A DNA stretch of 64,000 bases from Flavobacteriales bacterium (GTDB lineage: Bacteria; Bacteroidota; Bacteroidia; Flavobacteriales_F; PHOS-HE28): NCBI GenBank assembly GCA_016710965.1, contig JADJTW010000011.1:27040-91039 (forward strand), given 5' to 3'. Positions 13,308-57,042 of this stretch are shown here, in pieces. Position numbers and translations under genes: made by a program. Numbering within the stretch: position 1 is the first letter of the stretch; every line of letters begins with the position of its first letter. The notes under the pieces were generated by a model. It worked only from the letters and a program-made list of their open reading frames with translations. It ran no database searches and was not told the DNA's origin.

Positions 13308-13325
13308 ATACCTGTTTCCAGGTAT
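13308..13325 (-). promoter_or_regulatory. Palindrome site 1: ATACCTG-TTTC-CAGGTAT (GAAA centre on the minus strand)
   Basis: Perfect 7-bp arms. Sits about 65-80 bp upstream of the minus-strand SprB-like gene start. Confidence 0.4.
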
Positions 13326-13335
13326 TTTTCGAGTG

Positions 13336-13359
13336 TAATGATGTCATTAAGCATCATTA
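13336..13359. promoter_or_regulatory. Inverted repeat TAATGATG-N8-CATCATTA
   Basis: Perfect 8-bp arms in an AT-rich stretch between palindrome sites 1 and 2, inside a divergent promoter region. Confidence 0.35.
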
Positions 13360-13369
13360 GCAGCAGCAT

Positions 13370-13387
13370 CTACCTGGAAACAGGTGG
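13370..13387 (+). promoter_or_regulatory. Palindrome site 2: CTACCTG-GAAA-CAGGTGG
   Basis: One mismatch in the arms. Sits about 80 bp upstream of the plus-strand FAD oxidoreductase gene. Confidence 0.4.
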
Positions 13388-13467
13388 AGGAGCATATCGG
13401 TCGTGAGGCGAGCGGGTCTGGGTAACCAGCATTCCCTGTAGCATGGAACTCACCCCATCTTCGCCTC

Positions 13468-14517
13468 GTGCCTTTCACCCACGACGTCATCATCATCGGC
13501 CAGGGGCTTGCGGGCACCTTGCTCAGCGAGACGTTTGCCGATAGGGGCCTGCGCGTGATGGTCTTCGATGCGCCGCGTGCCAGGCGCTCGAGCGCGGTGG
13601 CTACGGGCATCATCAACCCCATCGTATTGCGGCGCACGGTGCCCACCTGGCGCGGCTCGGAGATGCTGGCCATAGCCGGTGCGTACTACCGTGAGTTGGA
13701 ATTGGACTACGACGCCAGCTTCTGGCGCCCCATGCCGCTGGTGGAGCTTTTCCCCACGGCGCAGGAGGCCGGGCTATGGCACGCGCGGATGAAGGAAGAG
13801 GAGCTGGCGCGCATGATCGCGCTCGGCAGCGGCGATGATCCGGCGGTGGCACAACTTCCTCAACCCTACGGTTGCGGCATGGTGAAGCGCTGCGCGTGGC
13901 TCGACATCCCTGCGTTGTTGCTTGCCCACCGCGAGCGATGGATGCGCTCGGGGGCTTTGGAAGAGCGCGCAGTGGAGCAGAGCGATGTGCGCGCCATCGA
14001 TGGTGGTGTTGAGCTCGCTGATCGTACAGCCCCTGTGCTGGTCTGGTGCGCCGGGCCCTTCCATAGCGTGAAAGGACTGGTGCCCGTTCGCGGCGAGGGA
14101 CTCACCGTACGACTTCCCGGCCTCGCGCTGCGCTCGATCGTGCATCGTGGGCTCTTCCTGCTGCCGATCGGTGACGAGGTGTATCGCGCTGGCGCCACCT
14201 TCAACTGGGACGATGTGTGGAGCGGGCGCACGGAGAAAGCGCGCCATCAGTTGCTGGACAAGCTCTCGCGCATCTGGAGCGGTGAAGTGGAAGTGCTGGA
14301 CCATTGGGCAGGCGTGCGCCCTGCCGCCGTGGACCGTCGTCCGATCCTCGGCCGGATCGATGCGCATCAAGCGGTATTCACCGGTCTGGGCTCGCGCGGT
14401 GGTTTGTTGGCACCATGGTGCGCCGCGCACCTGGCCGATCATCTCCTCACGGGCACTCCCTTGGACCCCGAAGTGGACCTCAAGCGGTTCACCGAACAGC
14501 CTCCGCCTTCTCTTTGA
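13468..14517 (+). CDS. FAD-dependent oxidoreductase (DAO / MnmC-C-terminal-like)
   Basis: N-terminal VIIIGQGLAG dinucleotide-binding motif; 349 aa. Confidence 0.65.
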   Translation: MPFTHDVIIIGQGLAGTLLSETFADRGLRVMVFDAPRARRSSAVATGIINPIVLRRTVPTWRGSEMLAIAGAYYRELELDYDASFWRPMPLVELFPTAQEAGLWHARMKEEELARMIALGSGDDPAVAQLPQPYGCGMVKRCAWLDIPALLLAHRERWMRSGALEERAVEQSDVRAIDGGVELADRTAPVLVWCAGPFHSVKGLVPVRGEGLTVRLPGLALRSIVHRGLFLLPIGDEVYRAGATFNWDDVWSGRTEKARHQLLDKLSRIWSGEVEVLDHWAGVRPAAVDRRPILGRIDAHQAVFTGLGSRGGLLAPWCAAHLADHLLTGTPLDPEVDLKRFTEQPPPSL

Positions 14518-14749
14518 TGCTCGCCACGAAGCCGTCGCAGAACTCGCGCAAAGCGGCCCAGTCGGTGTACTCGTAGTCCCTGGAGGCATCCGTCTCACGT
14601 CCTTCCTTCTTCGCTATCATGCGCATGATGAAGCGCTTGAAGAAGTCGTTCTGAAGATATTTGAGGGCACCGGTCACCAGTTCGATCCGGCGAGGTGTCC
14701 GCGCGCATCCGTTGTCGAAGGAAGGGGCGCATTCCTTGGCCTCATTCAT
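14489..14749 (-). CDS. Small hypothetical protein
   Basis: The ORF starts at MNEAKECAP...; no recognisable domain. Confidence 0.25.
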   Translation of the reverse strand: MNEAKECAPSFDNGCARTPRRIELVTGALKYLQNDFFKRFIMRMIAKKEGRETDASRDYEYTDWAALREFCDGFVASIKEKAEAVR

Positions 14750-14773
14750 GATCGTTGTCAACCCCAAGCCCCG

Positions 14774-17700
14774 ATGAATACGAGCTTTGCGCACCGCCTT
14801 CGTCGCGCCGCTCCGACCATGCTGAAACCAGCCCTCCGCACCGCCCTTGTCCTATCCGTCGCCGCTGCCGTCCTCTTCGGTTGCCGCACCACGCACGAAA
14901 GCGTACGCAGTGTACAGCGTGCGGATCCACGCTGGTCGGCCATCGACTCCCTGGCGAACCTCGGGCAATACGCTACGGCGTTGGAGCGCACCGATTCGCT
15001 CCTGGCCGAGGCTGAGCGCAGCGGTGATTGGCGCACCGAGTTCAAGGCGTGGATACGCCGTGCCGAGTTCCGCGACTATGCCGGTGTGGAGGATGTTCTG
15101 ACGCTCAAGGAGCTGGGCGATCGAGCGCGCATCGCGCCGGTGCCACTAGCCCAGCTATTGCACAGTGTCCGCGCCGAGGGATGGTGGACCAAGTACAGCA
15201 ACGAACGATGGATCATCCTCGAACGCACGGAACTGGCGACTGTTAGCGACGACGACCCCGAGACGTGGACCCAGCGACGGTACATGGAAGAAGTGATCGG
15301 GGCGTTCTCGGCCTCGGTGCGACCGATGGACACGCTTGCGCGGATCCCTGTCGGCGAGCTCGGGATACTGCTTGAAGGCGATAGTGGAGCGCACTACCTG
15401 CGGCCCACGCTCTTCGATCTGCTCGCGCACAGGGCCATTGCTGTTTTCCGCAACAGCGAAACTCGACTGGCTGAGCCCGCCTGGCGCTTCACGCTGGACG
15501 ACCCGCACTACTTCACGCTCTTCGAGCCCTTCGCTATGCGGCCCTTGCGCCACCGGGACAGTACAGCATGGGAGTTCCAGGCTTTGCGCCTCTATCAAGA
15601 GATGGAGCGTATCCATTTGGTGGATGATACCATCGCCGCGTACGTGGACCTGGTGACGGACCGCCTGGCATACGTGCATGAGCACTGCGCGCTGCCCAAC
15701 AAGGATTCGTTGCATCTGGCGGCATTGGAACAGCTGCGCACGCGCCTTCCCGAGGATGTGTGCTGGAGCGAGACCACCGTGGAGATCGCTCGCTGGCACG
15801 CCCGCGCCGCCGGGCGCTACGACCGACTGAATGGCGATGCGTGGAAGTGGGAGCGCAAGCGGGCGGTGGAACTATGCGACTCGGCGATCGCACGTTGGCC
15901 GAAGTCCTTCGGCGCGCGCAATGCACGGGCCTTGAGAGAGCGATTGAAGCAAGCCGAGATGAATGTGCAGTGCGAGCAGGCCGTGCCCTCGCGTAAGGAC
16001 TTCCTCATTTCTCTGGAGTACCGCAATGCTCCGCATGTATGGCTGCGTGTGGTGAAGGACCCGGCGAAGGAGGGCGAACGCCAGTATGGACAAGAACATG
16101 CGGTGCGCCTGGCCGCCATGAAGCCAGAGCTTGCTTGGGACATCGCCCTTCCGGACGACGGCGACCTGAACAGCCATCGCGTGGAGTTGCCCGTTGCAGG
16201 ACTGCCTTACGGCAAGTACGTGGTCCTTGCCAGCACGAGCGCCGCCTTCAATGCGATCGAGTACCCGATGGTGTGGTGCAACTTGCAAGTGACGGACATG
16301 TCCGTTGTTCGTCGCGAAAGCGGGACCAACCTCGAACTCCTGGTGCTTGATCGGACGAGCGGCCTTCCCTTGCCCGGCGTGATGGCCACGCTCTTCGTCG
16401 AAGACTTTTCCAGCGGTGAGAGGCGCAAGGAGAAGCTGGCGCATTGGTCACCGATGCAGAAGGACGCGTGCGCTCTCCCCGTACGATGCGCAATGGGCGC
16501 GCTGAGTGGCTGCTCGAGAACAACGACGACCGGTACACTTCCCAGAACCTGTACATCTATCCGCGATTCGAAGGCGAGTCCGTGGACCTCCGGACCTTCC
16601 TGTTCACGGACCGCGCCATTTACCGGCCCGGGCAGGAGATGCATGTGAAGGGGATCGTGACCACGAGGAGGGGGAAGAACGCAGAGATCGTCACCGGCTA
16701 TCGCGCTCGGGTGTTCTTCCATGATGTGAACGGCGACGTGATCGACTCGCTGATCGCCACAACCGATGCGTATGGCGCATTCCACGGGACCTTCACCACA
16801 CCGGTCGGCAGGCTCACGGGCCTCATGCACCTCCACGAAGAGCACGGCGACAAGTGGATCCGTGTCGAAGAGTACAAGCGGCCCACCTTCGAGGCACGAT
16901 TCGAACCCATATCTGCCACGCCCACGCTCGGCGATGAAGCCATGGTGGTCGGAACGGCCTTGAGCTACGCCGGAGCGCCGCTCGATGGCGCCAGCGTGCG
17001 CTACACGGTAAGGCGCAGCGCGCGCATGCCGTGGTGGTGCGGCTGGCAGTGGCGGGGCCTCGGTTGGTGGCGGCAGACCGAAGTCGCCAGCGGCGAAGCG
17101 ACCTGCGACGCACAGGGGCGGTTCATCGTGCGCTTCAAGGCCGAGGCCTCGCGCGCCTTCCCGCGCGCGGCAGACCCTTCGTTCGCCTTCGATGTAGAAG
17201 CATGGGTGACCGACATCAACGGAGAGACGCAGAGCGCCAGCACCTCCTTCGTCGTGGGCTACCGCAGCATCGAGCCCCTGCTCGGTGTCGAAGACGCCGT
17301 CGATCGCAGTATGGCCGATAGCCTGCTGGCGCGCATCGACAACCTCAATGGACAGCGCGTCGATATCCCTTTCGATCTACGCATCACACGACTGCTTCGG
17401 CCAGAAGGGCGTGTCAAGCGTACGCGCCTGTGGGAGCGCCCCGATCAACAGGTGCTGACCGACGAGGAATTCGCACAGCGCTTCCCCGATGACGAACGCA
17501 CCGACATGGATGATCCCGTGAATTGGGCCCGTGGTGCAGTGGTACTGGATCAACATGGACTTTCGCCGGAAGGCAAGCAGGTTGCGCTTGCGGGCGTCCG
17601 TGATTGGGAAGTGGGCACTTACATCGCCGAGTTGGATGTGGTCGACCCTGGCGGACAGCCCGTGAGGGTGTCAAGGACCTTCACGTTGTTCGACCCGGAT

Positions 17701-20700
17701 ATCCAGCACACGGGATTCGAGAACGAAGCATTCCATGTGGAGGTGCTCAATGCGCAGTGCGAGCCGGGCGAGAAGGCTGTGCTGCTATTGAGCAGCGCGC
17801 TGCCCGCCTGCCGTGTGCTCATGGAGGTGGAACGCGATGGCGCCATCGTTGTCAGTCGCCCCTTCACCTTGCGCAATGGCCAGCAGCGTGTGGAGCTGCC
17901 GGTGCTCGAAGGAGATCGCGGCGGCTTCGCCGTGCATTTCGTGTGCGTGGAACGAGGACGGGATCATAACAGCACGCAATGGATCGATGTGCCGTGGAGC
18001 AACAAGGAGCTCAAGGTGGAATGGATGAGCTTCCGCGACAAGCTGCTGCCCGGCGCTAGGGAGGAATGGAGGTTGCGTATCACCGGACCGAAGAAGGAGA
18101 AGGTGACGGCGCAGTTGCTGGCCGCGATGTATGATGCATCGCTCGATGTCTTCGAAACGCCGGATTGGTCCATGCCGATCCATGGCTCCAACAACGCCCT
18201 GCACGCATGGGCGCACAGCGAGCCATTCGGTATCGGCGGCGGATACCACAACTACGTGCAACGCTATGCCATTGCCGATAGCGCTCGCCGATATCCGCTC
18301 CTGGTCGGCGAGCTTCCACAGCGACGCATGAGGAGGCGGTTCCGTACGACAGCCGCACCCCCCACCGATGGTCGCATGGACATGGCCGGAGATGCGGCCG
18401 AGATGGAAGCGACGAGGTCGTTCAGCCTGGCTGCAGGGCTGACCGATGGGTCCCTTCAGGAAGAAGATGAAGCGGACAAGAACGGAGGTGAGCGCACCGA
18501 AGCCGCCACGCAAGCGACCTCTCCAGGTAGCGCCTCTTTGCGCACCGACTTCCGCGAAACGGCTTTCTTCTTCCCCGACCTGCTCACCGATCGCGATGGC
18601 GAGGTGGTGCTCCGTTTCACTATGCCCGATGCGCTCACGCGTTGGAACTTCATGGGCTTTGCGCACACCAAGGAGCTGCAGCTGGCGCACATCGCGCGCA
18701 GCACCATCACCCAGAAACCGTTGATGGTGATCCCCAACCTGCCACGCTTCTTGCGCCAAGGCGATCGTATCACGCTCACGGCAAAGATCAACAAGGTTGA
18801 AGAAGGTGCTGCCAGCGGCACGGCGCGCCTTGAGCTCTTCGACCCGCGGACCAATGCCGCTATCACCTCCCGCTTCATCGCCGCCCGCACCGAACGGGCA
18901 TTCACCGCTGCGCCCGGGAGCAGCGCCAATGTCAGCTGGGCGCTGCAAGTGCCTGAGGGCGTCGATGCTGTTGCCGTGCGTATCACGGCATCCGGCATCG
19001 GCTTCAGCGATGGCGAAGAGCGCGTGCTGCCGATCCTCACGGACAAGGTGCTCGTCACGGAGAGCGTCCCCATGGCAATCACCAAGGCCGGCACCAAGAC
19101 ATTCGAGCTGCCGAACCTGCTTAACGCCGCAGACAGTCCTACGATCGAGCATCGTTCACTGACGCTGGAGTACACGCCCAACCCGGCATGGTATGCTGTG
19201 CAAGCCCTGCCGTACATGATGGAGTTCCCGCACGAATGCGCCGAGCAGGTCTTCAGCCGGTACTACGCGAACCGCCTCGCAACGCATATCGTTCGGCAGC
19301 GCCCCGCAGTGAAGAGGGTGTTCGAGGCGTGGAGCAAGGGCGCACCGGGCAACGAAGGCGCCTTCCTGAGCGCGCTGGAGAAGAACCCCGAGCTGCGCAG
19401 CGTATTGCTGGAGGAAACACCGTGGGTGATGAATGCGAAGGACGAGAGCGAACGCAAGCGCCGCATCGCGCTCTTCTTCGACCTGCACCGCATGGCCAAC
19501 GAAGAAGCCATGAGCTTGAAGAAGCTGGGCGACATGCAACGGCCCAACGGTGCATGGCCATGGTGGAGCGGCATGCAACCATCACGATACATCACCCAGC
19601 ACATCGTGGCGGGCTTCGGGCACCTCCAGAAGCTGGGCGCGCTCGACGATGATCCCGACACCGATGCACGACGCATGGTGAAGAGCGCCGTTGAGTGGCT
19701 GGACAAGCAAGCCGATGAGGACTACCGGCGCATGCTGCGCGACTTCAAGGGCGATAGCATCCCGCACCCGTCAGCGGAGGACATACACTACCTGTACGCG
19801 CGCACCTGCTTCCCGCAATATCCCTTCGATCGCAGGCGCGATGGGCTTGCGGAGTTCATCATCACACGGGCCGAGCGCTATTGGCTGCACTACGGCTTGC
19901 AGGAACAGGCTATGATCGCCATCGCGCTGCACAGGCTCGGCAACCAGGACGTGCCCGCGCTCATCATGGAATCGCTTTCGCAACGGGCAACCCTGAGCGA
20001 AGAGCTCGGCATGTACTGGAAGGGCTTCCACGTCGGCTACTACTGGTACGAGTTCCCAACGGAGACGCACGCGCTCATGATCGAAGCCTTCGACTTGGTG
20101 ACCAAAGACAAGCAGAAGGTGAACGCCTTGCGCCAATACCTGTTGAAGCTGAAGCAGACCACGGATTGGCGAACGACCAAAGCCACTGCTGATGCCTGCT
20201 ATGCACTACTGCTCACTGGCGACGATTGGCTGGAGGCCCGGAACGCCCCGGCGATCAGCGTGGGCGGCGAGCGGGTGAGGCCGCAGGCGCAGGAAGCGGG
20301 AACGGGTTATTTCACGAAGGCCTGGCAGGGCAACGAGGTGAAGCCGGCGATGGGCAGGGTTTCGGTGACCAGCACGGACGACGCCTTGCAATGGGGCGCC
20401 TTGCACTGGCAGTACTTCGAGCGCATGGACAAAGTGATGCCGCATGAGAGCCCCTTCAGCCTGCGCAGGCAAGTGATGCTGAACGAGCGGACGGACGCTG
20501 GTGCGCGACTGATCCCGCTCGATAGTGCGCGTGCATTGAAGGCCGGGGACAAGCTCACCGTGCGCGTTGAACTGCGCACGGATCGCTACCTGGATTACGT
20601 GCATCTCAAGGACTTGCGTGCAGCGGGCCTCGAACCTGTGGCCACTATCAGCGGTTACCAATGGAAGGGCGGCCTCGGCTACTACCAAAGCATCCGCGAC

Positions 20701-20877
20701 GCGGCCATGAATTTCTTCTTCGACCGCATCCCGCCGGGCACCTACGTGTTCGAGTACGACCTGAAGGCCACGCATACCGGCGTGTTCAGCAATGGCATCA
20801 CCAGCGCGCAATGCATGTACGCCCCGGAATTCTCCTCTCATAGCGCTGGGCTTGTGATCACCATCGGGCAACCGTAG
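14774..20877 (+). CDS. Alpha-2-macroglobulin family lipoprotein with thioester motif; frameshift near 16440
   Basis: Lipobox LSVAAAVLFGC. The A2M body shows MG-domain-like repeats and a thioester motif HECAEQ. ORFs 14147..16648 and 16444..20877 are consecutive pieces in frames offset by one base (...RRKEKLA / ALVTDAEGRV). Confidence 0.8.
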
Positions 20878-20921
20878 CCAGCGCGGAACCGGGCTTCCCA
20901 TTCCTGCGTAGGAGGCCCGCC

Positions 20922-23333: not shown

Positions 23334-23354
23334 CCGCCCCGTTACATTCGCGCC

Positions 23355-24478: not shown

Positions 24479-24543
24479 CAGCGGCCTGCAACCCCTTGCG
24501 CGAGGGACCGTACACACGGCCCCGCTGGGGACCGGTGGCCCGC

Positions 24544-25371
24544 ATGAAAAGCTATCTTCGGCGGCCGAAGCGCCTCAAAGCCATGCGACTGCACCACCTC
24601 CTTCCCGCCCTCGCTCTTGCAGCGAATTCCTTCGCCGGCACCATCGTGCTCGAAGGCCATTACCAGGGCAAGAACCTCTTCATCCAGAACCCTTTCTCCG
24701 AAGCCGGTGTAGGCTTCTGCGTGTTCGAGGTCACGGTGAACGACCAGATCGCTACCGACGAGATCAATTCCAGCGCATTCGAATTGGACCTCGGCAACTT
24801 CGGCCTGAAGGTGGGCGATGCTGTTGTGGTGAAGGTGCGCCACAAGGACGGTTGCACCCCGGTGATCCTGAATCCCGAAGTGCTGAAGCCCAAGAGCACC
24901 TTCGACATCGTGAAGCAGGAGGTGAGCAGCGATGGCACCTACCGCTGGACCACGGCCAATGAGACCGGCGAACTGCCCTTCATCGTGGAGCAGAAGCGTT
25001 GGAACAAATGGGTGAAGGTCGGCGAAGTGATGGGTGTGGGCCGCCCCGGCGAGCACAAGTACGAGTTCAAGGTTACGCCGCACTACGGCGAGAACTACTT
25101 CCGCGTGAAGCAGACCGACCTCACGCGCAAAGCGCGTTTCAGCGAAGCGGTGACCTTCACCGACCCGAGCGTGCAACCCGTTACCTGGGGCCCGGTGAAA
25201 CCCAAGGAGGAGATCGTGTTCTCGGCCAATACGCTATACGAGATCTACGATCAGTACGGCAACATCGTCAAACGCGGCTACGCGAACAAGATCGACATCA
25301 CCACCTTGAAGAAGGACCTCTACTACCTGAACTACGACAACAAGATGGGGGAGACCTTCCTCAAGCGTTGA
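24544..25371 (+). CDS. Secreted hypothetical protein
   Basis: Signal peptide MRLHHLLPALALAANSFAG; no recognised domain. Confidence 0.45.
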   Translation: MKSYLRRPKRLKAMRLHHLLPALALAANSFAGTIVLEGHYQGKNLFIQNPFSEAGVGFCVFEVTVNDQIATDEINSSAFELDLGNFGLKVGDAVVVKVRHKDGCTPVILNPEVLKPKSTFDIVKQEVSSDGTYRWTTANETGELPFIVEQKRWNKWVKVGEVMGVGRPGEHKYEFKVTPHYGENYFRVKQTDLTRKARFSEAVTFTDPSVQPVTWGPVKPKEEIVFSANTLYEIYDQYGNIVKRGYANKIDITTLKKDLYYLNYDNKMGETFLKR

Positions 25372-28193: not shown

Positions 28194-28243
28194 CGGTTGG
28201 TCGTGGCCTCTACATTTGCGGCCTTCGCAACGCGATGCTGCGA

Positions 28244-44083: not shown

Positions 44084-44087
44084 GATC

Positions 44088-45545: not shown

Positions 45546-45764
45546 GGCTGAGGCGGGCAAAGATGAACACGGCGCTGTCGATGACGGCGAAGCCAAGGGC
45601 CCCGATGGCGTGCCGAACGACATTGAGCCCCTGCCGCCCTCGGTCGATGGCAGGCCCGGCTTGGTCTAATAGACATCGGCCCGGCGCACATCTCCCTTAT
45701 AGTTGCCGATGTGTTCACCACACCCATCCATCAAGTGCAGCGCCGCACGTTCGGCGTGCGTACC

Positions 45765-46509
45765 ATGCCAGCGAGCATCCTGATCGTCGAGGACGAGAAC
45801 ATCGTGCGCAAGGACATCGAGCAGACCGTGCGGACCCTCGGCTACACCGTGGTGGGCTCGGCCAATACGGGAAACGAAGCCGTTGAGCTGGCCAGTGAAC
45901 TGCGCCCCGACCTGGTCCTGATGGACATCATGCTCAAAGGCGAGATGAGCGGGATCGAAGCAGCCATGCTGATCCGCGATCGCGTAGGCAAGCCGGTGAT
46001 CTTCCTTACCGCCTATGCCGATGACGACACCGTGAGCCGCGCGCATCGCCGAGCCCTATGGTTACATCCTCAAGCCCTTCAAGGCTGTTGATATGCACAC
46101 CACCATCGAAATGGCGCTGTACAAGCACGCCCACGATGTGGACCTGATCAAGGAGCGCGACCAATTGTACCAGCTGGCCACCAAGGGCACTGCCGACCCG
46201 ATCTTCCTCAAGAACAGCGGCAAGCTCATCCGCCTGAAGCTGGAGGAGATCTACTACATCGCCGCCCTCAAGGATTACATGGGCATTCACGTGCATGATA
46301 AGCGGTACATCATCCACGGCACGCTCAAGAACATCGAATCCCGCCTGCCCGCCCACGATTTCATGCGCGTGCATCGCAGCTTCATTGTCCGCTTGGATCG
46401 CATTGCCGCTGTCGATCCTCCACAGATCATCCTGGAGAACGACAAGGGCTCCATCCCCATCGGCGAATCCTATCAGAGCAAGTTGCTCGAGCGCCTCAAT
46501 CCGCGGTAG
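45765..46509 (+). CDS. LytTR-family response regulator; frameshift near 46038-46044
   Basis: The receiver domain (ORF 45711..46091) and the LytTR domain (ORF 46093..46509) are in different frames. Removing one g from cgcgcGcat restores ...SRAIAEPYGYILKPFKAVD.... Confidence 0.75.
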
Positions 46510-46543
46510 GCGGGCAAACACCTCCTGCGCATACCTTCAGGGC

Positions 46544-46969: not shown

Positions 46970-46987
46970 CCACGGCCTGCTGCCACT

Positions 46988-47015
46988 GGAAACATTTTTC
47001 AGGTAAAACGTTTCC
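46988..47015. promoter_or_regulatory. Putative TetR operator palindrome
   Basis: GGAAACATTTT-tcaggt-AAAACGTTTCC, 60 bp upstream of the TetR gene. Confidence 0.45.
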
Positions 47016-47074
47016 GGTGTATCCCGCTGCATTACGTTTGCGCCCCCCAAGCGGAAACGCAGGGGAGTCGAACG

Positions 47075-47746
47075 ATGGCCAACGAGAAGATCACTGCAGC
47101 CGACCAGGCCGGAGCGGAGCCAGGCGACGAGCGCTTGCATCGGATCCTTGATGAATCCGCCAGGATCTTCTGGAAGCTAGGCATCAAGAGCGTGACCATG
47201 GACGATGTGGCCACCAGGCTGGGCATCTCCAAGAAGACCTTGTACCAGCATGTGACCGACAAGAACGATCTCGTCGACCGTGTGTTGAAGCACTTGAGCT
47301 TCTGCTACAAGTGCGATATCGATGCGGTGCGCGCTCGCGATAAGCAGAATGCCATCGACGAGCTCTATGCCATCACCACCACGGTGGCGGGCCAGCTGCA
47401 AGGCATCCATCCAAGCATCCACTTCGATCTGGAGAAGTACCACCCCGAGGCATTCCGCAACATGCTGGCCAATAAGCGGCGCGAGATCTTCGAGTGCAAC
47501 ACCCAGAACATGGCGCGCGGCATCAAGGAGGGCTTGTACCGCGAGGACCTCAACATCCCCATGATCGCAACGATCTACATCGCTCGTTTCGACATGGTCT
47601 TCGATGGCGCCCTGTTCCCGCCGGACCGTTTCAGCATGGCCGATCTGCACTGGGAGATCTTCCGCTACCACGTGCGCGGCATCGCCAGCAAGAAAGGGCT
47701 CGACTACCTGGAAAAGAAGATGACCAAAGAACGCGTACACGCATGA
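47075..47746 (+). CDS. TetR/AcrR-family transcriptional regulator
   Basis: N-terminal HTH (DDVATRLGISKKTLYQHV); 223 aa. Confidence 0.8.
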   Translation: MANEKITAADQAGAEPGDERLHRILDESARIFWKLGIKSVTMDDVATRLGISKKTLYQHVTDKNDLVDRVLKHLSFCYKCDIDAVRARDKQNAIDELYAITTTVAGQLQGIHPSIHFDLEKYHPEAFRNMLANKRREIFECNTQNMARGIKEGLYREDLNIPMIATIYIARFDMVFDGALFPPDRFSMADLHWEIFRYHVRGIASKKGLDYLEKKMTKERVHA

Positions 47747-49077: not shown

Positions 49078-49096
49078 ACACCACTTACCGGAACAC

Positions 49097-50254
49097 GTGA
49101 TGAAGAACACGATCATATCGATCACCGCTACTGCACTGCTTGCTGCGTGCGGAGCCAGCGCACCCACCGACGACCTCGGGAAGAAGCGCGTTCAACTGGA
49201 CAGCCTGAAGACCCTCTATAAGGAGATCGGCGAGCAGATCAAGGCCGCCGACACCTGGATCGCCGAGCACGACACCACCGTGAAGAAGAACCTGCCCAGC
49301 GTGACTACGCTCGTCCTGCAGCCTTCCACCTTCGAGCATTTCGTTGAGGTGCATGGCAACGTGAAGGCCGATAAGAGCGCCGACCTCTTCACCATGGGCG
49401 GTCGTGTGCGCCGGATACTTGTGGGCGAGGGAGATCAAGTGAGCAAGGGGCAGTTGCTGGTGGAATTGGATAATGACGCCATCGCTCGCCAGTTGGATGC
49501 AGCCGAAGCCGGTGCGAGGCTCGCCAAGGATGTGTTCGAGAGGCAGTCCGCCTTGTGGCAGCAGAAGATCGGCAGCGAGATGCAATACCTGCAGGCCAAG
49601 GCGCAGCACGACCAGGCCGAAGCCAGCGTGGCTGCCGTGCGCGAGCAGTGGCGGTTGAGCAACGTCACCGCTCCCTTCTCCGGAGTCATCGATGATATCA
49701 TGGTCACCGTGGGCGACATGACCAGCCCCATGGCACCGGTAGCTCGCGTAGTGGACCCCACCGGTGCCAGCCTGGAGGCCGATGTGCCCGAGAGCTACCT
49801 GCAACGCGTGAAGAAGGACGACCCTGTCCTCGTGGTCTTCCCCAGTACCGGCGATTCCCTGCGCGCCAGGCTGGGCAACGTGAGCCGCTACATCAACCCG
49901 GCCAACCGCACCTTCAGGGTAAGCGTGCGCATGCCTGACGGCGGGAACATGGTGCGCCCCAATCTGCTCAGCGTGATCCATGTGCGAGACCTCGTGATGG
50001 ACAGCGCGCTGGTGGTGCCCAGCCGTACGATCCAAGAGGATGTCAACGGCAACAACTACGTCTTCATCCTGGAGGACAAGGACGGAAAGCACCGCACGCG
50101 CAAGGTGATGGTGAAGCGCATGGCCGACTACAAGCAGAACACCATGATCGGCGTGGTGGAAGGCGCTGCTGCGCAATTGTTCGGCACCACCATCGTGGAC
50201 CAAGGCGCCAAGAGCGTGGGCGACGGGCAGGAAGTGAAGTTGACGAACCTCTGA
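49097..50254 (+). CDS. Efflux RND transporter periplasmic adaptor (HlyD/MFP) lipoprotein
   Basis: Lipobox LLAACGAS; coiled-coil hairpin and beta-barrel adaptor segments. Confidence 0.8.
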   Translation: MMKNTIISITATALLAACGASAPTDDLGKKRVQLDSLKTLYKEIGEQIKAADTWIAEHDTTVKKNLPSVTTLVLQPSTFEHFVEVHGNVKADKSADLFTMGGRVRRILVGEGDQVSKGQLLVELDNDAIARQLDAAEAGARLAKDVFERQSALWQQKIGSEMQYLQAKAQHDQAEASVAAVREQWRLSNVTAPFSGVIDDIMVTVGDMTSPMAPVARVVDPTGASLEADVPESYLQRVKKDDPVLVVFPSTGDSLRARLGNVSRYINPANRTFRVSVRMPDGGNMVRPNLLSVIHVRDLVMDSALVVPSRTIQEDVNGNNYVFILEDKDGKHRTRKVMVKRMADYKQNTMIGVVEGAAAQLFGTTIVDQGAKSVGDGQEVKLTNL

Positions 50255-50362
50255 GTTCGTTCACCACAGAGACACAGAGGCACAGAGAGATCCAAATGCA
50301 GAAGCACGACCACCTGATGACGCTACGACAACAAGTCACGTTCTCCGTGTCTCCGTGCCTCT

Positions 50363-53300
50363 GTGGTTAAACGCATTCGAGCAATGGACCACAGCAACAT
50401 CGAGAACGAAGCCTACGGCGAAGGCCACGGCCGCCAGTTCGCCATCACCAGCTGGGCGGTGAAGAACCGCACCACCGTCATGGTGATCACCGCGCTCATC
50501 TTCATCTACGGCATCTACTCCTACGATGCCATGCCGAAGGAGAGCTTCCCCGAGGTGGTCACGCCCGAGATCTACGTGGCAACGGCCTACAACAGCAGCT
50601 CGGTGGTCGATATCGAGAAGCTCATCACCAAGCCGCTCGAGAAGGAGATCAACACCATCACCGGTGTCGATGAGATCAACTCCACCTCGGTGCCCAACTT
50701 CAGCACCATCCAGGTCAAGTTCACCTACGACATCAGCCCAACGGAAGCGCTGCGCAAGGTGAAGGACGCCGTGGACAAGGCACAGGGCGATGTCGATTTC
50801 CCCAAGGACCTGCCCGCCGAGCCCAACATCTTCGAGATGAACTTCTCCGAGATGATGCCGGTGATGAACATCAACCTCAGCGGCGATTACAGCATCGACC
50901 AGCTGCACCACTATGGCAAGATCCTCGAGGACCGCATCGAGGCGTTGCCCGAGATCAACAAGGTCGATATCCGCGGCGTGCCCGAGAAGGAGGTGAAGGT
51001 GAACGTGGACCTCCACCAGCTCGAAGCCCTGCAATTGAACTTCGGCGATGTGGCCATGGCGCTGCAGACCGAGAACCTCACCATGAGCGGCGGCGAAGTG
51101 CTCACCGACGGCCAGCGCCGTGCGGTGCGCGTGATCGGCGAGTTCACCGACATGGAGACCATCCGCGACATCGTCATCAAGAACGAGAAGCTGCAGGAAG
51201 TGCGCCTGCGCGATGTGGCCACCGTGGAGTTCGACTTCAAGGAAGCCGACAGCTACGCCCGCGAGTCCGGCAACCCCGTCGTCATGGTCGATGTGATCAA
51301 GCGCGCCGGTGAGAACCTGATCATCGCCAGCGACAAGATCAACACCATCCTCACCGAAGCCCGCGGCACGGTGATCCCCGAGGACGTCACCATCACCATC
51401 ACCAACGACCAGAGCGACGACACCCGCGTGCAGGTGGATGAGCTCTTCAACCACATCATCTTCGGCGTCATCCTCGTCGTAGGAACGCTCCTCTTCTTCC
51501 TCGGCCTGCGCAATGCGCTCTTCGTGGGTCTCGCCATCCCCATGAGCATGTTCATCTCATTCATCATCCTCAATGCGTTCGGGGTCACGCTCAACATCAT
51601 GGTGCTCTTCTCCTTGATCCTTGCCCTCGGCCGCTTGGTCGATGACGGCATCGTCATCGTGGAGAACATCTACCGCCACATGAGCAACGGCGAAAAGCCG
51701 ATGGACGCGACCCGCAAAGCAGTAGGAGAGGTCACCATGCCCATCGTGGCCGCCACCACCGCCACCGTCATGGTCTTCGTGCCGCTGCTCTTCTGGCCCG
51801 GCCTCATGGGCCAGTTCATGAAGTGGATGCCCATCACCTTCATGGTATCCCTCAGCGCATCCCTCTTCGTCGCCCTCGTCGTGAACCCCGCCCTCAGCAC
51901 GCAGTTCATGAAGATCGAGCGCGACAACCCCGACAAGAAGAAGGTCTTCCGGCTCGTGGGCATCCTGGCCGTGGTGGGCACGCTCATCGCCGTCTTGGGC
52001 GCCAGTGCGCACAGCGGCTTTGTCACTGGCCTCGGCACCTTCACCGTCTTCTGCGGCATCCTCGGTCTCCTCAACCTCTGGGTGGGAGCGCCCGGCACCC
52101 GCTGGTTCCAGGACACCTTCCTGCCGCGTCTCGAAGCGCAATACGAGCGCTTCCTCCGCTATGCCCTTGATCGCCACCACCCCCGCACCTTCTTCTTCGG
52201 CACCATCGGCCTGCTCCTCTTCGCCTTCGTGCTCCTGGGCATCTTCCCGCCCAAAGTGGAATTCTTCCCCATCAACGAACCCAAGTACGTCAACGTCTTC
52301 ATCGAAGCACCCATCGGCACCGACATCGAGAAGACCAACGAGATCACCCGTCTGCTGGAGAAGCAGGTGGACGACATCGTGAACGTCGATCCATACATGG
52401 AGGAAGTGGAGGTGAAGAAGCCGGACGGTACCGTGGTGAAGGAGCGCCGCAACTGGCTCATCAACTCCGTCATCAGCCAGGTGGGCAACGGCACCAGCGA
52501 TCCCGCGCAAGGCGTCAGCCTGGCCAACACGCCCAACAAGGGCCGCATCCAGCTCAGCTTCGTCAAGTACGCGCAGCGCCGCGGCATGAAGACCAACGAC
52601 GTCCTCCTCAAGCTCCAGAAAGAACTCGCCGGCTATCCCGGCATCATCGTCACCGTCGATAAGGACGCCGCAGGCCCGCCCACCGGCAAGCCCATCAACA
52701 TCGAGATCAGCGGCGACGAGATCGAACCCCTCCTCGCCGAGGCCGATCGCCTCAAGGCCTTCATGGAAAGCAAGAACGTGCCGGGGGTCGAAGCACTGCG
52801 CATCGACATCGACCGCGCCAAGCCCGAGATGCCCATCATCATCGATCGCGCCAAGGCCCGCCGCCTCAACGTGAGCACTTACGCCGTGGCCGATGCCATC
52901 CGCACAGCCCTCTTCGGCAAGGAGGTCAGCACCTATCGCATCGAGGGCGATGACGATGACTACAAGATCCAGGTGCGCCTCAAGGACGAGCAGCGCTATG
53001 ATATCGGCACCATCATGGACATGAAGATCACCTTCCGCGACATGCTCACCGGCCAGATCCGCCAGGTGCCCATCAGCGCCGTGGCCAGGGACGAGCGCAG
53101 CAGCACCTTCAGCGCCATCAAGCGCCAGGACCTCAAGCGCGTCGTCACCGTCAGCAGCAACGTCATCAGCGGCTACAACAGCAACGAGGTCATCGCCGAA
53201 ATGAAGGACGCCCTCACCGGCTACGACAAGGACGAGCGCTTCGGCATGGCCTTCACCGGCCAGCAGGAGGAGCAGATGAAGGAGATGAGCTTCCTCGGCA

Positions 53301-53968
53301 GCGCCTTCCTCATCGCACTCTTCATCGTCTTCCTCATCATCGTCTGGCAGTTCAACAGCATCAGCTATCCGCTGGTCATCCTCAGCACCGTCCTCTTCAG
53401 CACCATCGGCGTCTTCCTCGGCCTCGTGGTCTTCCGCATGGACTTCATCATCCTCATGACCATGCTCGGCATCATCTCGCTCATCGGCGTCGTCGTCAAC
53501 AACGCCATCGTGCTCATGGACTTCGCACGCCTCCTCTTCGATCGCCAGCGCGAGAAACTGGGCTTGCCGGAGGAAGCCGTCCTGCCCGTCGCCAACTCCC
53601 GCGACGCCCTCATCATCGCCGGCAAGACCCGCCTCCGCCCGGTCCTCCTCACCGCCGTCACCGCCGTCCTCGGCCTCCTCCCCCTCGCCGTAGGCTTCAA
53701 CCTCAACTTCGGCACCCTCTTCACCGAGCTCAACCCCCACATCCACATCGGCGGCGACAACGTCATCTTCTGGGGGCCCCTCTCATGGGCCGTCATCTAC
53801 GGCCTCACCTTCGCCACATTCCTCACCCTCATCATGGTCCCCGTCATGCTCCTCATCATCGCCAAGATCAAGCACCGCCGGGCGTGGAAGAAACAGATGC
53901 GCATGGCGCCGGTTATTTCAGCCGAGCCCATCCGCAACACCGGCGGAGCCGATCCGGCGTTGGCGTAG
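50363..53968 (+). CDS. RND efflux pump permease (AcrB/CzcA family)
   Basis: 1201 aa, 12 TM helices, AcrB-like N-terminus FAITSWAVKNRTTVMVI. Confidence 0.9.
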   Translation: MVKRIRAMDHSNIENEAYGEGHGRQFAITSWAVKNRTTVMVITALIFIYGIYSYDAMPKESFPEVVTPEIYVATAYNSSSVVDIEKLITKPLEKEINTITGVDEINSTSVPNFSTIQVKFTYDISPTEALRKVKDAVDKAQGDVDFPKDLPAEPNIFEMNFSEMMPVMNINLSGDYSIDQLHHYGKILEDRIEALPEINKVDIRGVPEKEVKVNVDLHQLEALQLNFGDVAMALQTENLTMSGGEVLTDGQRRAVRVIGEFTDMETIRDIVIKNEKLQEVRLRDVATVEFDFKEADSYARESGNPVVMVDVIKRAGENLIIASDKINTILTEARGTVIPEDVTITITNDQSDDTRVQVDELFNHIIFGVILVVGTLLFFLGLRNALFVGLAIPMSMFISFIILNAFGVTLNIMVLFSLILALGRLVDDGIVIVENIYRHMSNGEKPMDATRKAVGEVTMPIVAATTATVMVFVPLLFWPGLMGQFMKWMPITFMVSLSASLFVALVVNPALSTQFMKIERDNPDKKKVFRLVGILAVVGTLIAVLGASAHSGFVTGLGTFTVFCGILGLLNLWVGAPGTRWFQDTFLPRLEAQYERFLRYALDRHHPRTFFFGTIGLLLFAFVLLGIFPPKVEFFPINEPKYVNVFIEAPIGTDIEKTNEITRLLEKQVDDIVNVDPYMEEVEVKKPDGTVVKERRNWLINSVISQVGNGTSDPAQGVSLANTPNKGRIQLSFVKYAQRRGMKTNDVLLKLQKELAGYPGIIVTVDKDAAGPPTGKPINIEISGDEIEPLLAEADRLKAFMESKNVPGVEALRIDIDRAKPEMPIIIDRAKARRLNVSTYAVADAIRTALFGKEVSTYRIEGDDDDYKIQVRLKDEQRYDIGTIMDMKITFRDMLTGQIRQVPISAVARDERSSTFSAIKRQDLKRVVTVSSNVISGYNSNEVIAEMKDALTGYDKDERFGMAFTGQQEEQMKEMSFLGSAFLIALFIVFLIIVWQFNSISYPLVILSTVLFSTIGVFLGLVVFRMDFIILMTMLGIISLIGVVVNNAIVLMDFARLLFDRQREKLGLPEEAVLPVANSRDALIIAGKTRLRPVLLTAVTAVLGLLPLAVGFNLNFGTLFTELNPHIHIGGDNVIFWGPLSWAVIYGLTFATFLTLIMVPVMLLIIAKIKHRRAWKKQMRMAPVISAEPIRNTGGADPALA

Positions 53969-53983
53969 CACCGCCTGGGTAAG

Positions 53984-54020
53984 AGAAAGCGGCCGTCGGG
54001 ACTCCCGGTGGCCGCTTTCT
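53984..54020 (+). terminator. Rho-independent terminator after the RND operon
   Basis: AGAAAGCGGCC-N16-GGCCGCTTTCT, a perfect 11-bp stem. Confidence 0.55.
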
Positions 54021-54106
54021 CAGTCGCTTCTTGCTGGAGGGTCGATCATGCTTGCTTGCTGTGTGGTTTGCTTGCTCATCTCCATCTCCCCCCCGCTCAA
54101 AGCTCA

Positions 54107-54141
54107 CAACCACTAGCTCGCAGCTTGTAGCTCGCAGCTAG
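54107..54141. promoter_or_regulatory. Tandem repeat inside a palindrome: CACTAGCTCGCAGCT-tgt-AGCTCGCAGCTAGTG
   Basis: Direct repeat of AGCTCGCAGCT flanked by inverted CACTAGCT/AGCTAGTG, 35 bp upstream of the receptor gene. Confidence 0.3.
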
Positions 54142-54175
54142 TGGCCCCTGCCTCCTTCCCCGGTAAGTTCGCCTC

Positions 54176-56476
54176 ATGCTTCGTCGCACCCTCGCGCTCG
54201 CCTTCATCCTTCAGGCTTGGGCGTGTACCGTGCATGCGCAAACCGCAACCCTCAGCGGCACCGTCCGCGATGCCGCATCCCTCGCTCCTTTGCACCAGGC
54301 CACCGTACAGGTCTTCCTCACCGACACCAGCTACGGCACCACCACCGATGCCCAGGGGCACTTCCGTTTCCTGGCACTGCCCATCGGCCTTCATCGCGTG
54401 CGTGCCAGCTACCTCGGCTACCAAAGCACCGAGATCCCCGAGGTATGGGTCCGCCTCGGAAAGGAGGAGCATCTCGAAATGCTGCTCACCGTGCAACCCG
54501 TCCAACTGGCCGCCGCAGAGGTCGTCACCACCGTCAGGCGCATCGCAGCCATCAGCTCGCACACCCTCACCGTCGAGCAAAGCCTGCGCTATCCCGCCAC
54601 CTTCTACGATCCCACACGCGTCGCGCTCACCCAGGCCGGCAGCGCTTCCATCAACGACCAGTCCAACCACTTCAGCGTCCGCGCCAACAGCCCCTCGTGC
54701 AACGCATGGCTGCTCGAAGGCGCCGAGATCGTCACGCCCAACCACCTCACCAACGGAGGAACATCCAGCGATCAGCCCACCCTCACCGGCGGCACCACCA
54801 TCCTCAGCGCACAAATGCTCGGCACATCACGCCTGCTCATGGGCGGCATGAACGCCGCCTACGGCAACGCGCTCGGCGGCATCCTCGATCTCAACCTCCG
54901 CCCCGGCATGAACCAACGAAGGGGCTATACCGCACAGGCCAGCCTGCTCGGCCTCGACTTCAGCACCGAAGGACCCTTCCGCACCGGCGGGCAGGCGAGC
55001 TACCTCATCAACTACCGCTACAGCACCGTCGGCCTGCTCGGCGCCATGGGCGTCGATCTCGGCGATGAGGCCATCACTTTCCAGGACCTCTCCTTCAATA
55101 TTGCAGTGCCATTGGGTGCTCGCGGCTACCTCGGCATCTTCGGCATGGGCGGCAACAGCAGCAACCGCTTCGCGGCGAAGGACAGCGCCGATCAAGAGTT
55201 CGACAAGGACAGCCGCAACATCGACTACGAAGCCAGCATGGGTGCTGCGGGCATCACCTTCCGCAAGCCCATCGGCGCACGCACCATCTGGCGCACCACC
55301 GTCATCTACAGCGCCAACCTGCAACAGCGTCACGAAGAAGGCCAGGCGTTCCACCAGGACTTCTCGTACTACATCGACGAGCGCGCCAGCCTCGATGAGC
55401 AGAAGCTCAGCGCCGTCAGCAACATCGCGGGCAGGATCGGCACGCGCACCGATTTCAATGTCGGGGCCAGTGCCATGCAGCGCATCGTCAGCAAGAACAT
55501 CATCCTGGTCGAAGAGGTCGATGCCGTGCTGCTCAGGCCCTACCTGCATACCGCCACATCGCTCTCATCCCACTGGCGGCTCGATCTCGGCGCCGCATGG
55601 TCGCACTACTCCCCCAACGGGTCCAATGAGATCGAACCCCGCGCAACACTGCGTTGGACCGCCAACCGCGGAACCTCCGTCGCCGTCAGCGCAGGCCAGC
55701 GCGCCCAATTGCCCTTGGTGCAATCCTTCACCGTCAGCGCCCTCGCCCCCTACGCCGATAACTCCGGCATCGGTCTCATGCGCATGCAGGAAGTAGTGCT
55801 CGCCGTGGATCATCCCATCAATGAGTTCCTCACCGTGCATGCCGAAGCGTACATGCAGCAACGCGACCAGGTGCCGGTCGCGCTCTCAAGCGGATCCACC
55901 ACCGCATCCGCAGGCAGCCTCAGCCTCGTGAACGCATGGGATCAGCAGTTCTTCGCCCTGCTTTACGCCATCGGCACCGCACGCACCACCGGCGCCGAGA
56001 TCAGCCTCTCGCGTTCCATGGCGCGCGGCTTCTACTATATGGTCAACACCACCGTGCTCAACTCCGACTACACCGATGCCGGCGCCCGCGCCCATCCGAG
56101 CCGCTGGAACACCACGTACATGGGCAACGCCTTGTTCGGCTGCGAGCGCGGCAAGCAGCTCCACGAAGGATCGCGCACCTGGGGCTTCAACTTGCGCATC
56201 GGGGCGCAGGGCGGCTTGCGCTACACGCCCTTCACCCTGGTCAATGGCGCCTTCCAGCCCTACGCCGCGCAGAATGCCGCCGCCTATCGTGTGGATGTGC
56301 GCATCTACCGCAAGCGCGAACGCAAGCAGCGCACAGGCATGTGGTCCCTCGACCTGCTCAACGCCACCAACGCGCAGAACGAAGCCTTCCGATACTACGA
56401 TGAACGCAAGGGCGAAGTCGTCGTGAAGTACCAGCTCGGCATCATCCCCAACATCGGTTACCGCATCGAATTCTGA
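54176..56476 (+). CDS. TonB-dependent receptor with N-terminal CarbopepD_reg-like domain
   Basis: Signal peptide; TLSGTVRDAASLAPLHQATVQVFL...; plug-like region; C-terminal ...YRIEF aromatic terminus. Confidence 0.75.
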   Translation: MLRRTLALAFILQAWACTVHAQTATLSGTVRDAASLAPLHQATVQVFLTDTSYGTTTDAQGHFRFLALPIGLHRVRASYLGYQSTEIPEVWVRLGKEEHLEMLLTVQPVQLAAAEVVTTVRRIAAISSHTLTVEQSLRYPATFYDPTRVALTQAGSASINDQSNHFSVRANSPSCNAWLLEGAEIVTPNHLTNGGTSSDQPTLTGGTTILSAQMLGTSRLLMGGMNAAYGNALGGILDLNLRPGMNQRRGYTAQASLLGLDFSTEGPFRTGGQASYLINYRYSTVGLLGAMGVDLGDEAITFQDLSFNIAVPLGARGYLGIFGMGGNSSNRFAAKDSADQEFDKDSRNIDYEASMGAAGITFRKPIGARTIWRTTVIYSANLQQRHEEGQAFHQDFSYYIDERASLDEQKLSAVSNIAGRIGTRTDFNVGASAMQRIVSKNIILVEEVDAVLLRPYLHTATSLSSHWRLDLGAAWSHYSPNGSNEIEPRATLRWTANRGTSVAVSAGQRAQLPLVQSFTVSALAPYADNSGIGLMRMQEVVLAVDHPINEFLTVHAEAYMQQRDQVPVALSSGSTTASAGSLSLVNAWDQQFFALLYAIGTARTTGAEISLSRSMARGFYYMVNTTVLNSDYTDAGARAHPSRWNTTYMGNALFGCERGKQLHEGSRTWGFNLRIGAQGGLRYTPFTLVNGAFQPYAAQNAAAYRVDVRIYRKRERKQRTGMWSLDLLNATNAQNEAFRYYDERKGEVVVKYQLGIIPNIGYRIEF

Positions 56477-56485
56477 ATCCTCCCC

Positions 56486-56860
56486 ATGAAGAAGATCATC
56501 CACCTCCTCCTTGCGCTCTCCTTCCTCGCCTTCGCCTACCTCAACCTCAACGATCCCGATGCGCCGATCTGGGTGCTCGGCTACGGCGCTGCCGCCCTGC
56601 TCTTCGCGCTCGCGGTCTTCGGCCGCGCCGATCGACGCATCAGCGGCTGGTATGCCGTGGCCATGGCCGTTTGGATGCTCACCCTATCGCGCGGCATGAT
56701 CGATTGGTTCAGGATGGGCATGCCTTCCATCACAGGCACCATGCAAGCCCACGAGCCGCACATCGAAGTGGTGCGCGAGTTCCTCGGTCTGCTCATTGCC
56801 GTGCTCGCTTTGGTGTGGCTCACCATCACCACCCCCCGCGAGTCGCGCATGGGCCGTTAG
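56486..56860 (+). CDS. Small 4-TM membrane protein, TMEM220-like
   Basis: 124 aa; LAFAYLNLNDPDAPIWVLGY start typical of the family. Confidence 0.45.
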   Translation: MKKIIHLLLALSFLAFAYLNLNDPDAPIWVLGYGAAALLFALAVFGRADRRISGWYAVAMAVWMLTLSRGMIDWFRMGMPSITGTMQAHEPHIEVVREFLGLLIAVLALVWLTITTPRESRMGR

Positions 56861-56880
56861 CCCGGTTCGCTGCGCATCGA

Positions 56881-56898
56881 CTACCTGGAAACAGGTAG
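56881..56898 (+). promoter_or_regulatory. Palindrome site 3: CTACCTG-GAAA-CAGGTAG
   Basis: Perfect 7-bp arms; 20 bp after the stop of the TMEM220-like gene. Confidence 0.4.
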
Positions 56899-57024
56899 AT
56901 GGACCGACGCGCGAACAACCGCCGCGCCGGTGACATACGGGCCCTGGCGCTTGCAAACCCGCTGCTGGCAAGGCAATCAGCGCATCCGGGGCGCTTGATC
57001 CACGCCTTTCGGATTTTCGTCGAA

Positions 57025-57042
57025 ATACCTGGAAACAGGTAT
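57025..57042 (+). promoter_or_regulatory. Palindrome site 4: ATACCTG-GAAA-CAGGTAT
   Basis: Perfect 7-bp arms; ends 12 bp before the ATG at 57055. Confidence 0.4.

Follow-up and report, generated by a model that had tools for sequence, protein, structure and literature searches.

The window analysed here is a stretch of 64,000 nucleotides (64 kb, 62% GC) of contig JADJTW010000011.1 from a Flavobacteriales bacterium, and the element under study is a 16-bp palindrome, TACCTGGAAACAGGTA, of which four copies were found as putative operators at two promoters. One promoter belongs to an operon led by a gene for a peptidoglycan hydrolase with SH3 and CHAP (TIGR02594) domains, and the other belongs to an island of surface proteins and proteins of the type IX secretion system (T9SS) which is headed by an SprB-repeat gene. 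Three of the copies were found to be exact in a search of the window, whereas the fourth (site 2) contained one mismatch, its last base being G, and no further match was found in the window at up to two mismatches. The expected count of the 16-mer was 0.01 against the four copies observed, and none of 100 dinucleotide shuffles reached four. With the centre relaxed to TACCTG-N4-CAGGTA, a single weak extra match was found in the window at position 25182. All four sites were found to be intergenic.

The 16-mer reads TACCTGG-AA-ACAGGTA and was found to contain the inverted heptamers TACCTGG and TACCTGT with 2 bp between them (7-2-7). The core arms were 6 bp long (TACCTG/CAGGTA). They were longer at three sites: site 1 had arms of 8 bp (AATACCTG/CAGGTATT), site 3 had arms of 7 bp (CTACCTG/CAGGTAG) and site 4 had arms of 11 nt that matched at 91%. 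Outside the 16-mer, no similarity common to all four sites was found. Only sites 1 and 4 were flanked alike, by an A-run 5′ of the palindrome and TTGCG 3′ of it, and sites 2 and 3 were without these flanks. Site 2 was inverted relative to site 1, the two forming an inverted pair that matches perfectly over 15 nt with 46 nt between them, and was found to contain neither an adjacent TTG nor a -7 box. Site 3 begins 21 nt past the stop codon of a TMEM220-like gene. An earlier description made from the letters of the window (the sequence-only reading) had reported the palindrome in four copies, which agrees with the three exact copies and the one with a single mismatch. Its coordinates pointed to real sites and were one base too wide on each side of the 16-mer, and its arms of 7 bp were found at site 3, the core being shorter and the arms of sites 1 and 4 being longer. 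The GAAA centre had been described as reading on the strand of the adjacent downstream gene, and this was found to hold with the nearest downstream open reading frame for all four sites of the window, but not as a general rule, as the relatives carry the centre either way with respect to the promoter (L118, L163 and L213 against L197). The positions of the sites and of the features around them are collected in Table 1.

Table 1. Sites, predicted promoter elements and genes of the two control regions in the window
Feature	Position	Strand	Description	Basis
Regulated island	5698..13243	minus	operon of surface and T9SS-secreted proteins	
Predicted transcription start, SprB-repeat operon	near 13270-13272	minus		
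Predicted -7 box CACCTTCG	13277..13284	minus	21 nt after TTG, spacing as in the CHAP promoter	predicted from sequence
Predicted -33 TTG, SprB-repeat operon	13306..13308	minus		sequence
Site 1	13309..13324	minus	promoter-proximal operator (putative) of the SprB-repeat surface-protein operon; predicted centre ~-45; flanks as site 4 (AAAAA...TTGCG)	
Site 2 (TACCTGGAAACAGGTG)	13371..13386	plus	distal operator (putative), 62 bp from site 1, ~-107 from the SprB-repeat promoter	
Site 3	56882..56897	plus	distal operator (putative), 144 bp upstream of site 4 (~-190)	
Site 4	57026..57041	plus	promoter-proximal 7-2-7 operator (putative; TACCTGG-AA-ACAGGTA) of the CHAP/TIGR02594 operon; predicted centre ~-45	
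Predicted -33 TTG, CHAP operon	57042..57044	plus	directly abuts site 4	orthologue alignment
Predicted -7 box CTACTTCG	57066..57073	plus	21 nt after TTG	predicted from sequence
Predicted transcription start, CHAP operon	near 57078-57080	plus		predicted from sequence
SH3 + CHAP (TIGR02594) peptidoglycan-hydrolase gene	57094..57741	plus	corrected start	Pfam + NCBIfam

The CHAP gene was found to head an operon reaching at least position 63865, followed by the presence of genes for a coiled-coil protein, a membrane protein, an Amidohydro_2 protein and others. No defence-system match was found for this operon with PADLOC. In an alignment, six CHAP orthologues were all found to begin with M(P/A/V)THR, and the start in the window is therefore the ATG at 57094, with site 4 ending 52 nt before it. 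The sequence-only reading had placed the end of site 4 at 12 bp before the ATG; the distance to the ATG at 57055 is 13 nt, and this ATG gave way to the corrected start. The open frame 57055-57093 (MATRYFVVQNIWT), which contains the predicted -7 box, is probably not coding, as the orthologues begin at the M(P/A/V)THR methionine.

The palindrome was found to be conserved in its place upstream of the CHAP orthologues, and synteny of the CHAP operon was found in L117 and L124. In L116 (CHAP identity 85%), both sites were unchanged and site 3 was identical. The locus L117 (64%) was found to contain AAAATACCCGGAACCGGGTATTGCG as the proximal site and a degenerate copy, TTTCCGGCACCGGGTA, 137 bp upstream, followed by the presence of AAAATACCTGGTACCAGGTATATGG in L120/121 (65%), AAAATACCCTGTACAGGGTATTGTG in L124/125 (55%) and AAAATACCCATTTCCGGGTATTGCG in L118 (55%). 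An A-run (AAAA), TACC, N8 and GGTA were found to be conserved in L116, L117, L118, L120/121 and L124/125 roughly 50 nt ahead of the common start codon. The TTG after GGTA was present in every orthologous CHAP promoter except that of L120/121, which contained TAT, and the -7 offset in the orthologues was occupied by TATTTCG, TACTTCG, TTGTTTCG, TTGCTTTG or AAGATTTG. The inner eight bases varied by genome, yet they were found to be largely self-complementary in each, the GAAA centre being replaced by GGAACC, GGTACC, TGTACA or ATTTCC, and the 7-2-7 geometry was present in all of the CHAP orthologue sites.

The locus L118 was also found to contain other features near its CHAP operon. Several palindromes resembling repetitive extragenic palindromes (REP; GACCC-N5-GGGTC) were present at 9600-9830 of L118, upstream of the CHAP promoter, and were unrelated to the 16-mer; a gene for an IS200/RAYT-type Y1 transposase was found about 4 kb from them. 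A LytTR and receiver pair was located upstream of the CHAP operon of L118 and was orthologous to the LytTR gene of the window (46093-46509).

The other control region was found at the promoter end of the island. The first gene of the island is the SprB-repeat gene, and its further genes code for SBBP-repeat proteins and a protein with Por_Secre_tail. The reading frame of the SprB-repeat gene opens with the ATG at 13243 and is broken at a C8/G8 homopolymer (13215-13222), followed by more frame changes at about 12470 and about 12720; these breaks may stem from indels of the assembly, from decay into a pseudogene or from a phase-variable tract. The island sits between an OmpA-like gene and the gene for a DAO (FAD) oxidoreductase and was absent from the syntenic loci L246-L248; it corresponds to a stretch of 7.8 kb (5600-13450) with a GC content of 0.52-0.60 against 0.62. 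In three relatives, the gene order Dxr, RseP, CheY-like, sometimes OmpA, and DAO (FAD) oxidoreductase was found to be gapless, and the segment of the window from 5.6 to 13.4 kb is therefore a lower-GC insertion with sites 1 and 2 at its promoter end. No such site was found at the DAO gene in the relatives. The FAD oxidoreductase had been proposed as a target of one of the sites, and this did not hold, as its gene in the relatives stands directly behind the upstream neighbour without a site; sites 1 and 2 arrived with the island and belong to the insertion, so that the oxidoreductase is not a conserved target.

A perfect palindrome of another sequence (TAATGATG-N8-CATCATTA) was found at 13336-13359, midway between sites 1 and 2. 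It was unique in the window, where 0.13 were expected, and may serve another factor that acts on this control region.

The -7 box of Bacteroidota promoters has been placed at -12 to -5 (PMC9723704), and the palindrome therefore spans about -51 to -36 in the promoter class to which sites 1 and 4 are assigned here. The tRNA promoter of the window (28211-28218) was found to contain the canonical Bacteroidota -7 box TACATTTG, against which a reading of the TTGCG flank as a -7 box was ruled out. The protein-gene promoters of this high-GC Flavobacteriales clade seem to contain nAnCTTCG where the phylum consensus is TAnnTTTG, with examples at 57066-57073, 13277-13284 and 13456-13463 of the window and in L246 and L248; the DAO promoters of the relatives also read nAnCTTCG.

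Other promoter types and motifs were compared and set aside. A sigma-54 promoter (TGGCAC-N5-TTGCW) was rejected because the spacing of GG and GC in TGGAAACAGGTATTGC is 11 nt and not 10, and L118 is without the GG. A -35 element GGAAAC of the extracytoplasmic function (ECF) type was rejected because the four sites share no downstream -10 element. The near-palindromic motif PM2 of B. thetaiotaomicron has its elements at -10 and -30 and is a different thing, and none of the F. psychrophilum promoter classes SM1-6 corresponds to the layout found here.

The layout was found to recur widely in metagenomes. At least 120 loci with at least 77 distinct sites were retrieved with the pattern AAATACCYN6RGGTATTGYG, a set that shows the register and the neighbourhood of the sites and not the frequency of the class. 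The loci listed had GC contents of 0.25 to 0.62, and many were from the human gut. In 41 of the 76 distinct promoters with enough downstream sequence, the TTG was followed at exactly 20 nt by a TAnnTTTG box, counted at five or more of its six fixed positions, and the background of this box was flat at all other offsets and in an upstream control. Among other canonical promoters of the same loci, GGTA before TTG was found in only 1 of 61, and this rarity identifies a specific promoter class and not a general extension of the -33 element. The genes downstream of the metagenome sites listed coded for TonB-dependent receptors, enolase, hemerythrin proteins, LutA, cytochrome c peroxidase and T9SS cargo, and no single pathway was found among them.

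Several of these loci were found to contain particular arrangements. The enolase genes of four low-GC Bacteroidota contigs (L152, L224, L243 and L234) were preceded by a site of the TACCTA-N4-(T/A)AGGTA type fused to the -33 TTG, and L234 contained a second such promoter 200 bp upstream, with a gene for a GerE solo 1 kb away. Hemerythrin genes of Bacteroidales, some of them fused to GerE, were found to contain a 7-2-7 site at their own promoter (L149, L179, L129, L146, L177 and L136), and the contigs of the hemerythrin-GerE fusion type L129, L146 and L181 contained a second palindrome, TACCTGATGGCAGGTA, about 45 nt downstream. Four TACC-N8-GGTA sites were present within 600 bp in L173 (1265-1890), apparently as a repeated unit, and two sites exactly 24 bp apart from start to start were found in L187 and L227.

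The genes near the class sites were found to be enriched in the GerE domain. GerE was the top Pfam family, with 6 members, among 150 regulator-sized neighbours of the metagenome sites. Of the 104 genes lying no more than 300 bp from a site, 8 carried the domain, against 6 of 321 genes farther away (p=0.008), and against 7 of 728 genes in unrelated loci (p=1.4e-4); five of these seven background genes fall in loci that contain the exact 16-mer of the window. The architectures of the GerE neighbours were response regulator with GerE, GerE solos, and a hemerythrin-GerE fusion with the site at its own promoter.

The exact 16-mer itself was also found beside regulators of the NarL family. In a scan of a genome collection with the bare 16-mer, the matches listed were mostly unrelated (a GldJ coding sequence reading YLETGT, 16S rRNA, tRNA arms and terminators), and the informative loci among them were L050, L089, L099, L108 and L112. 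In Chitinophaga (L099) and Flavihumibacter (L112), the exact 16-mer was located in the divergent promoter region of an operon for a TPR-HisKA_3 kinase and a NarL-type regulator, and in Pedobacter (L108) it was found 265 bp upstream of the regulator orthologue. Identity among the three regulators was 68-79%, and they were found to contain one common recognition helix (LSPLTVETHRKSLLQKF). Their best solved relative was NarL of E. coli (1a04, E=6e-30), and no NCBIfam equivalog reached its cut-off for them. In Hymenobacter (L050), the exact 16-mer abuts the TTG/-7 promoter of an operon which ends in a GerE protein. The heptamers of the 16-mer fit TACYY at positions 1-5 in both halves. The NarL reference site TACCCCTAAAGGGGTA (TACCCCT-AA-AGGGGTA) is bound by a dimer of the NarL C-terminal domain, and the NarL 7-2-7 sites of E. 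coli are located at -40 to -49 (napF) and -38 to -47 (yeaR) (PMC4549865). The literature searched contained nothing useful on TACC-N8-GGTA, on BT4338 motifs or on the binding sites of Bacteroidetes LuxR proteins.

The four 16-mers are best explained as NarL-type 7-2-7 DNA-binding sites of a LuxR/GerE-type dimer at two promoters, an assignment held at somewhat better than even confidence. Binding of the 16-mer by a GerE-domain dimer is predicted and likely, as suggested by the GerE enrichment and by the 16-mers beside the NarL-family regulators of L099, L112 and L108. The most probable candidate binder would be a two-component response regulator which is paired with a HisKA_3-type kinase and whose gene lies in another part of the genome. 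At each of two sigma-A promoters, the proximal site would be fused to the -33 TTG with its centre near -45, which matches the placement of NarL at the napF and yeaR promoters that it activates in E. coli, and a distal site would lie at about -107 in the SprB-repeat operon and at about -190 in the CHAP operon. Once the regulator is active, RNA polymerase would be recruited or stabilised by the dimer at the proximal site, with cooperativity contributed by the one at the distal site, and the T9SS/surface-protein operon and the operon led by the secreted cell-wall hydrolase would be switched on together. We infer activation rather than repression, as we do the transcription starts and the identity of the regulator in this genome. 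The sequence-only reading had proposed a palindromic operator for a dimeric regulator and a single regulon for the two loci; both proposals gained support, the promoter layout being the same at the two loci.

A number of points weigh against this assignment. A search of the window in six-frame translation found no GerE-domain protein. Of the DNA-binding regulators, only the LytTR protein (46093-46509) was nearby, and its family binds direct repeats. Positions 6-7 of the heptamers (GG/GT) depart from the NarL consensus, and the geometry alone would also fit a dimer of the CRP/FNR type. The more distant CHAP loci L119 and L122 were found to contain HisKA_3/GerE two-component genes next door, yet no clean TACC-N8-GGTA was found in them. 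At three sites, 16 of 16 bases were identical, including the non-palindromic centre, which is tighter than most operator sets; this identity could result from recent copying or from a structural constraint. The -7 boxes CTACTTCG and CACCTTCG are weak matches, the -33 and -7 elements being assigned from sequence alone, and the metagenome pattern itself fixes TACC, GGTA and TTG.

An operator for a dimer of another family, such as one of the numerous CRP/FNR-type paralogues of Bacteroidota, was considered unlikely. Such paralogues bind palindromes of the form 5/6-4-5/6 with a centre near -41.5, the classic placement beside a promoter element, and act as class II activators; the 16-mer can likewise be read as 6-4-6 (TACCTG-N4-CAGGTA), it adjoins the -33 element, and the window contains no regulator by which the family could be fixed directly. 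The half-site, however, is TACC(Y) as in NarL and not TGTGA or TTGAT, no cNMP or Crp family was found among the families with two or more members in the 150 regulator-sized neighbours, where GerE was at the top, and the identical 16-mer was found beside orthologous regulators of the NarL family in three genera.

A role of the sites in RNA was considered very improbable. In this reading, the sites would be transcribed, and a stem of 6-8 bp with a GAAA tetraloop in the 5′ leader would be read by a protein or a nuclease or would modulate translation or stability. Every site was found to fold as a hairpin (-12 to -16 kcal/mol, z-scores of -2.4 to -5.7), but good folding is a property of any palindrome. 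Changes on both sides of the stem were found in the CHAP orthologues (T-A to C-G and G-C to T-A), and some covariation was found in the class, the observed score being reached by 3 of 500 shuffles; symmetric changes of this kind are, however, equally predicted by a co-evolving symmetric protein dimer. The predicted -33 and -7 elements come after sites 1 and 4, which would therefore be expected to stay outside the transcript, the GNRA loop was not kept in the orthologues, and the orientation of the loop with respect to the gene was found to flip in L118, L163 and L213. The sequence-only reading had placed a 7-bp stem with a GNRA loop in the 5′ leader and had suggested RNA-family and covariation searches: the stem gained no support, given the position of the proximal sites upstream of the predicted promoter elements and the loss of the loop, a scan of the whole window at the Rfam gathering threshold found one tRNA and nothing at the sites, and the cells of the four inner pairs that were able to pair amounted to 54% in 73 distinct related sites against 50.6% in shuffles.

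The least probable reading, in which the copies are a dispersed repeat (REP, REP doublets forming hairpins (REPIN), or miniature inverted-repeat transposable elements (MITE)) or hairpin terminators without a regulatory role, sites 1 and 2 being paired as an inverted doublet and site 3 serving the TMEM220-like gene as its terminator, would account for the perfect inversion of sites 1 and 2, for the closeness of site 3 to a stop codon, for the hairpin followed by a T-run on the opposite strand of sites 1 and 4 and for copies which are identical within a genome and different between genomes, but it is highly improbable, as only four copies without shared flanks past the 16-mer were found in 64 kb, the sequence between sites 1 and 2 was not complementary except for the unrelated inner palindrome, no convergent gene for a minus-strand terminator and no U-run in the sense direction was found, and the same promoter position and polarity were kept where the CHAP proteins are just 55-65% identical. 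The longer REP or MITE repeat that the sequence-only reading had named as the outcome which would speak against its proposal was accordingly not found around the four copies, and position and polarity were kept in the orthologous promoters of other genera.

The operator assignment, together with the metagenome class, allows a wider design to be drawn, which is possible but tentative. It would be a modular promoter used throughout the Bacteroidota, in which a 7-2-7 GerE/LuxR slot is welded to the -33 TTG, followed by the presence of TAnnTTTG 20 nt on, with the inner six bases choosing the paralogue. In such a design, paralogous NarL-type response regulators, LuxR solos and hemerythrin-LuxR proteins of the CdhR kind would use one slot, the TACC/GGTA ends, being invariant, would set the geometry of docking, and a paralogue code would lie in the six bases inside. 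The heptamers TACCTGG/TACCTGT would then be one code word, also used by a TPR-HisKA_3/NarL-type system of Chitinophagaceae and Pedobacter.

Little of the regulation of Bacteroidota has been mapped beyond the gut models, and for their numerous LuxR/NarL-type regulators only a few binding motifs are available. What is gained here is a predicted and testable operator, a promoter layout and a candidate regulator family for a regulon of T9SS/surface proteins and a cell-wall hydrolase. The 16-mer system would be an ordinary kind of switch without a new mechanism, with a layout that is recurrent across the phylum Bacteroidota, and the recurrence of a promoter design with a fixed register is a moderately interesting by-product. 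The TACC-N8-GGTA site fused to the -33 TTG could allow GerE-type regulons to be read from Bacteroidota genomes, and the same promoter class could guide the design of inducible promoters for Bacteroidota.

Three known systems were found to be comparable with the sites of the window. The class II sites of FNR and CRP (TTGAT-N4-ATCAA and TGTGA-N6-TCACA, centred at -41.5) share with them a palindrome that overlaps or abuts the upstream promoter element in strict register to the core promoter, and the position is compatible, whereas the sequence of the half-site and the family of the associated regulator are different.

CdhR (PG1237) of P. gingivalis is an orphan LuxR-family regulator which is co-expressed with the hemerythrin-like protein PG1236, and its DNA motif is undefined (PMC11018363). 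The window encodes no CdhR-like protein, and the link is made by analogy only: CdhR is likewise a GerE-type protein of Bacteroidota, and the hemerythrin and hemerythrin-GerE genes of gut-metagenome contigs with a class site would mirror the PG1236-CdhR unit of that paper. The unit is induced by nitric oxide.

The NarL/NarP 7-2-7 sites (TACYYMT-N2-AKRRGTA, for example TACCCCTAAAGGGGTA) were found to be different from the 16-mer at positions 6-7, which are GG/GT here and M-T in NarL. The promoters of the window have the -33/-7 elements of Bacteroidota, with the TTG joined directly to the site in a fixed register, and the regulon is not related to nitrate and consists of surface/T9SS proteins and a cell-wall hydrolase operon, the binding being predicted in this case. 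The cognate regulator of NarL-type sites, often accompanied by a HisKA_3 kinase, is encoded nearby or is autoregulated; no such regulator was found in the window, whereas in L099 and L112 the site occupies the promoter region of the two-component operon itself. Both kinds of site contain 16 bp with inverted heptamers 2 bp apart and TACC/GGTA ends, both are located about 38-49 bp upstream of the start at activated promoters (predicted here; PMC4549865), and in both, additional distal sites occur often. In other Bacteroidota, the identical motif has regulators of the NarL family next to it, with NarL as their best solved relative.

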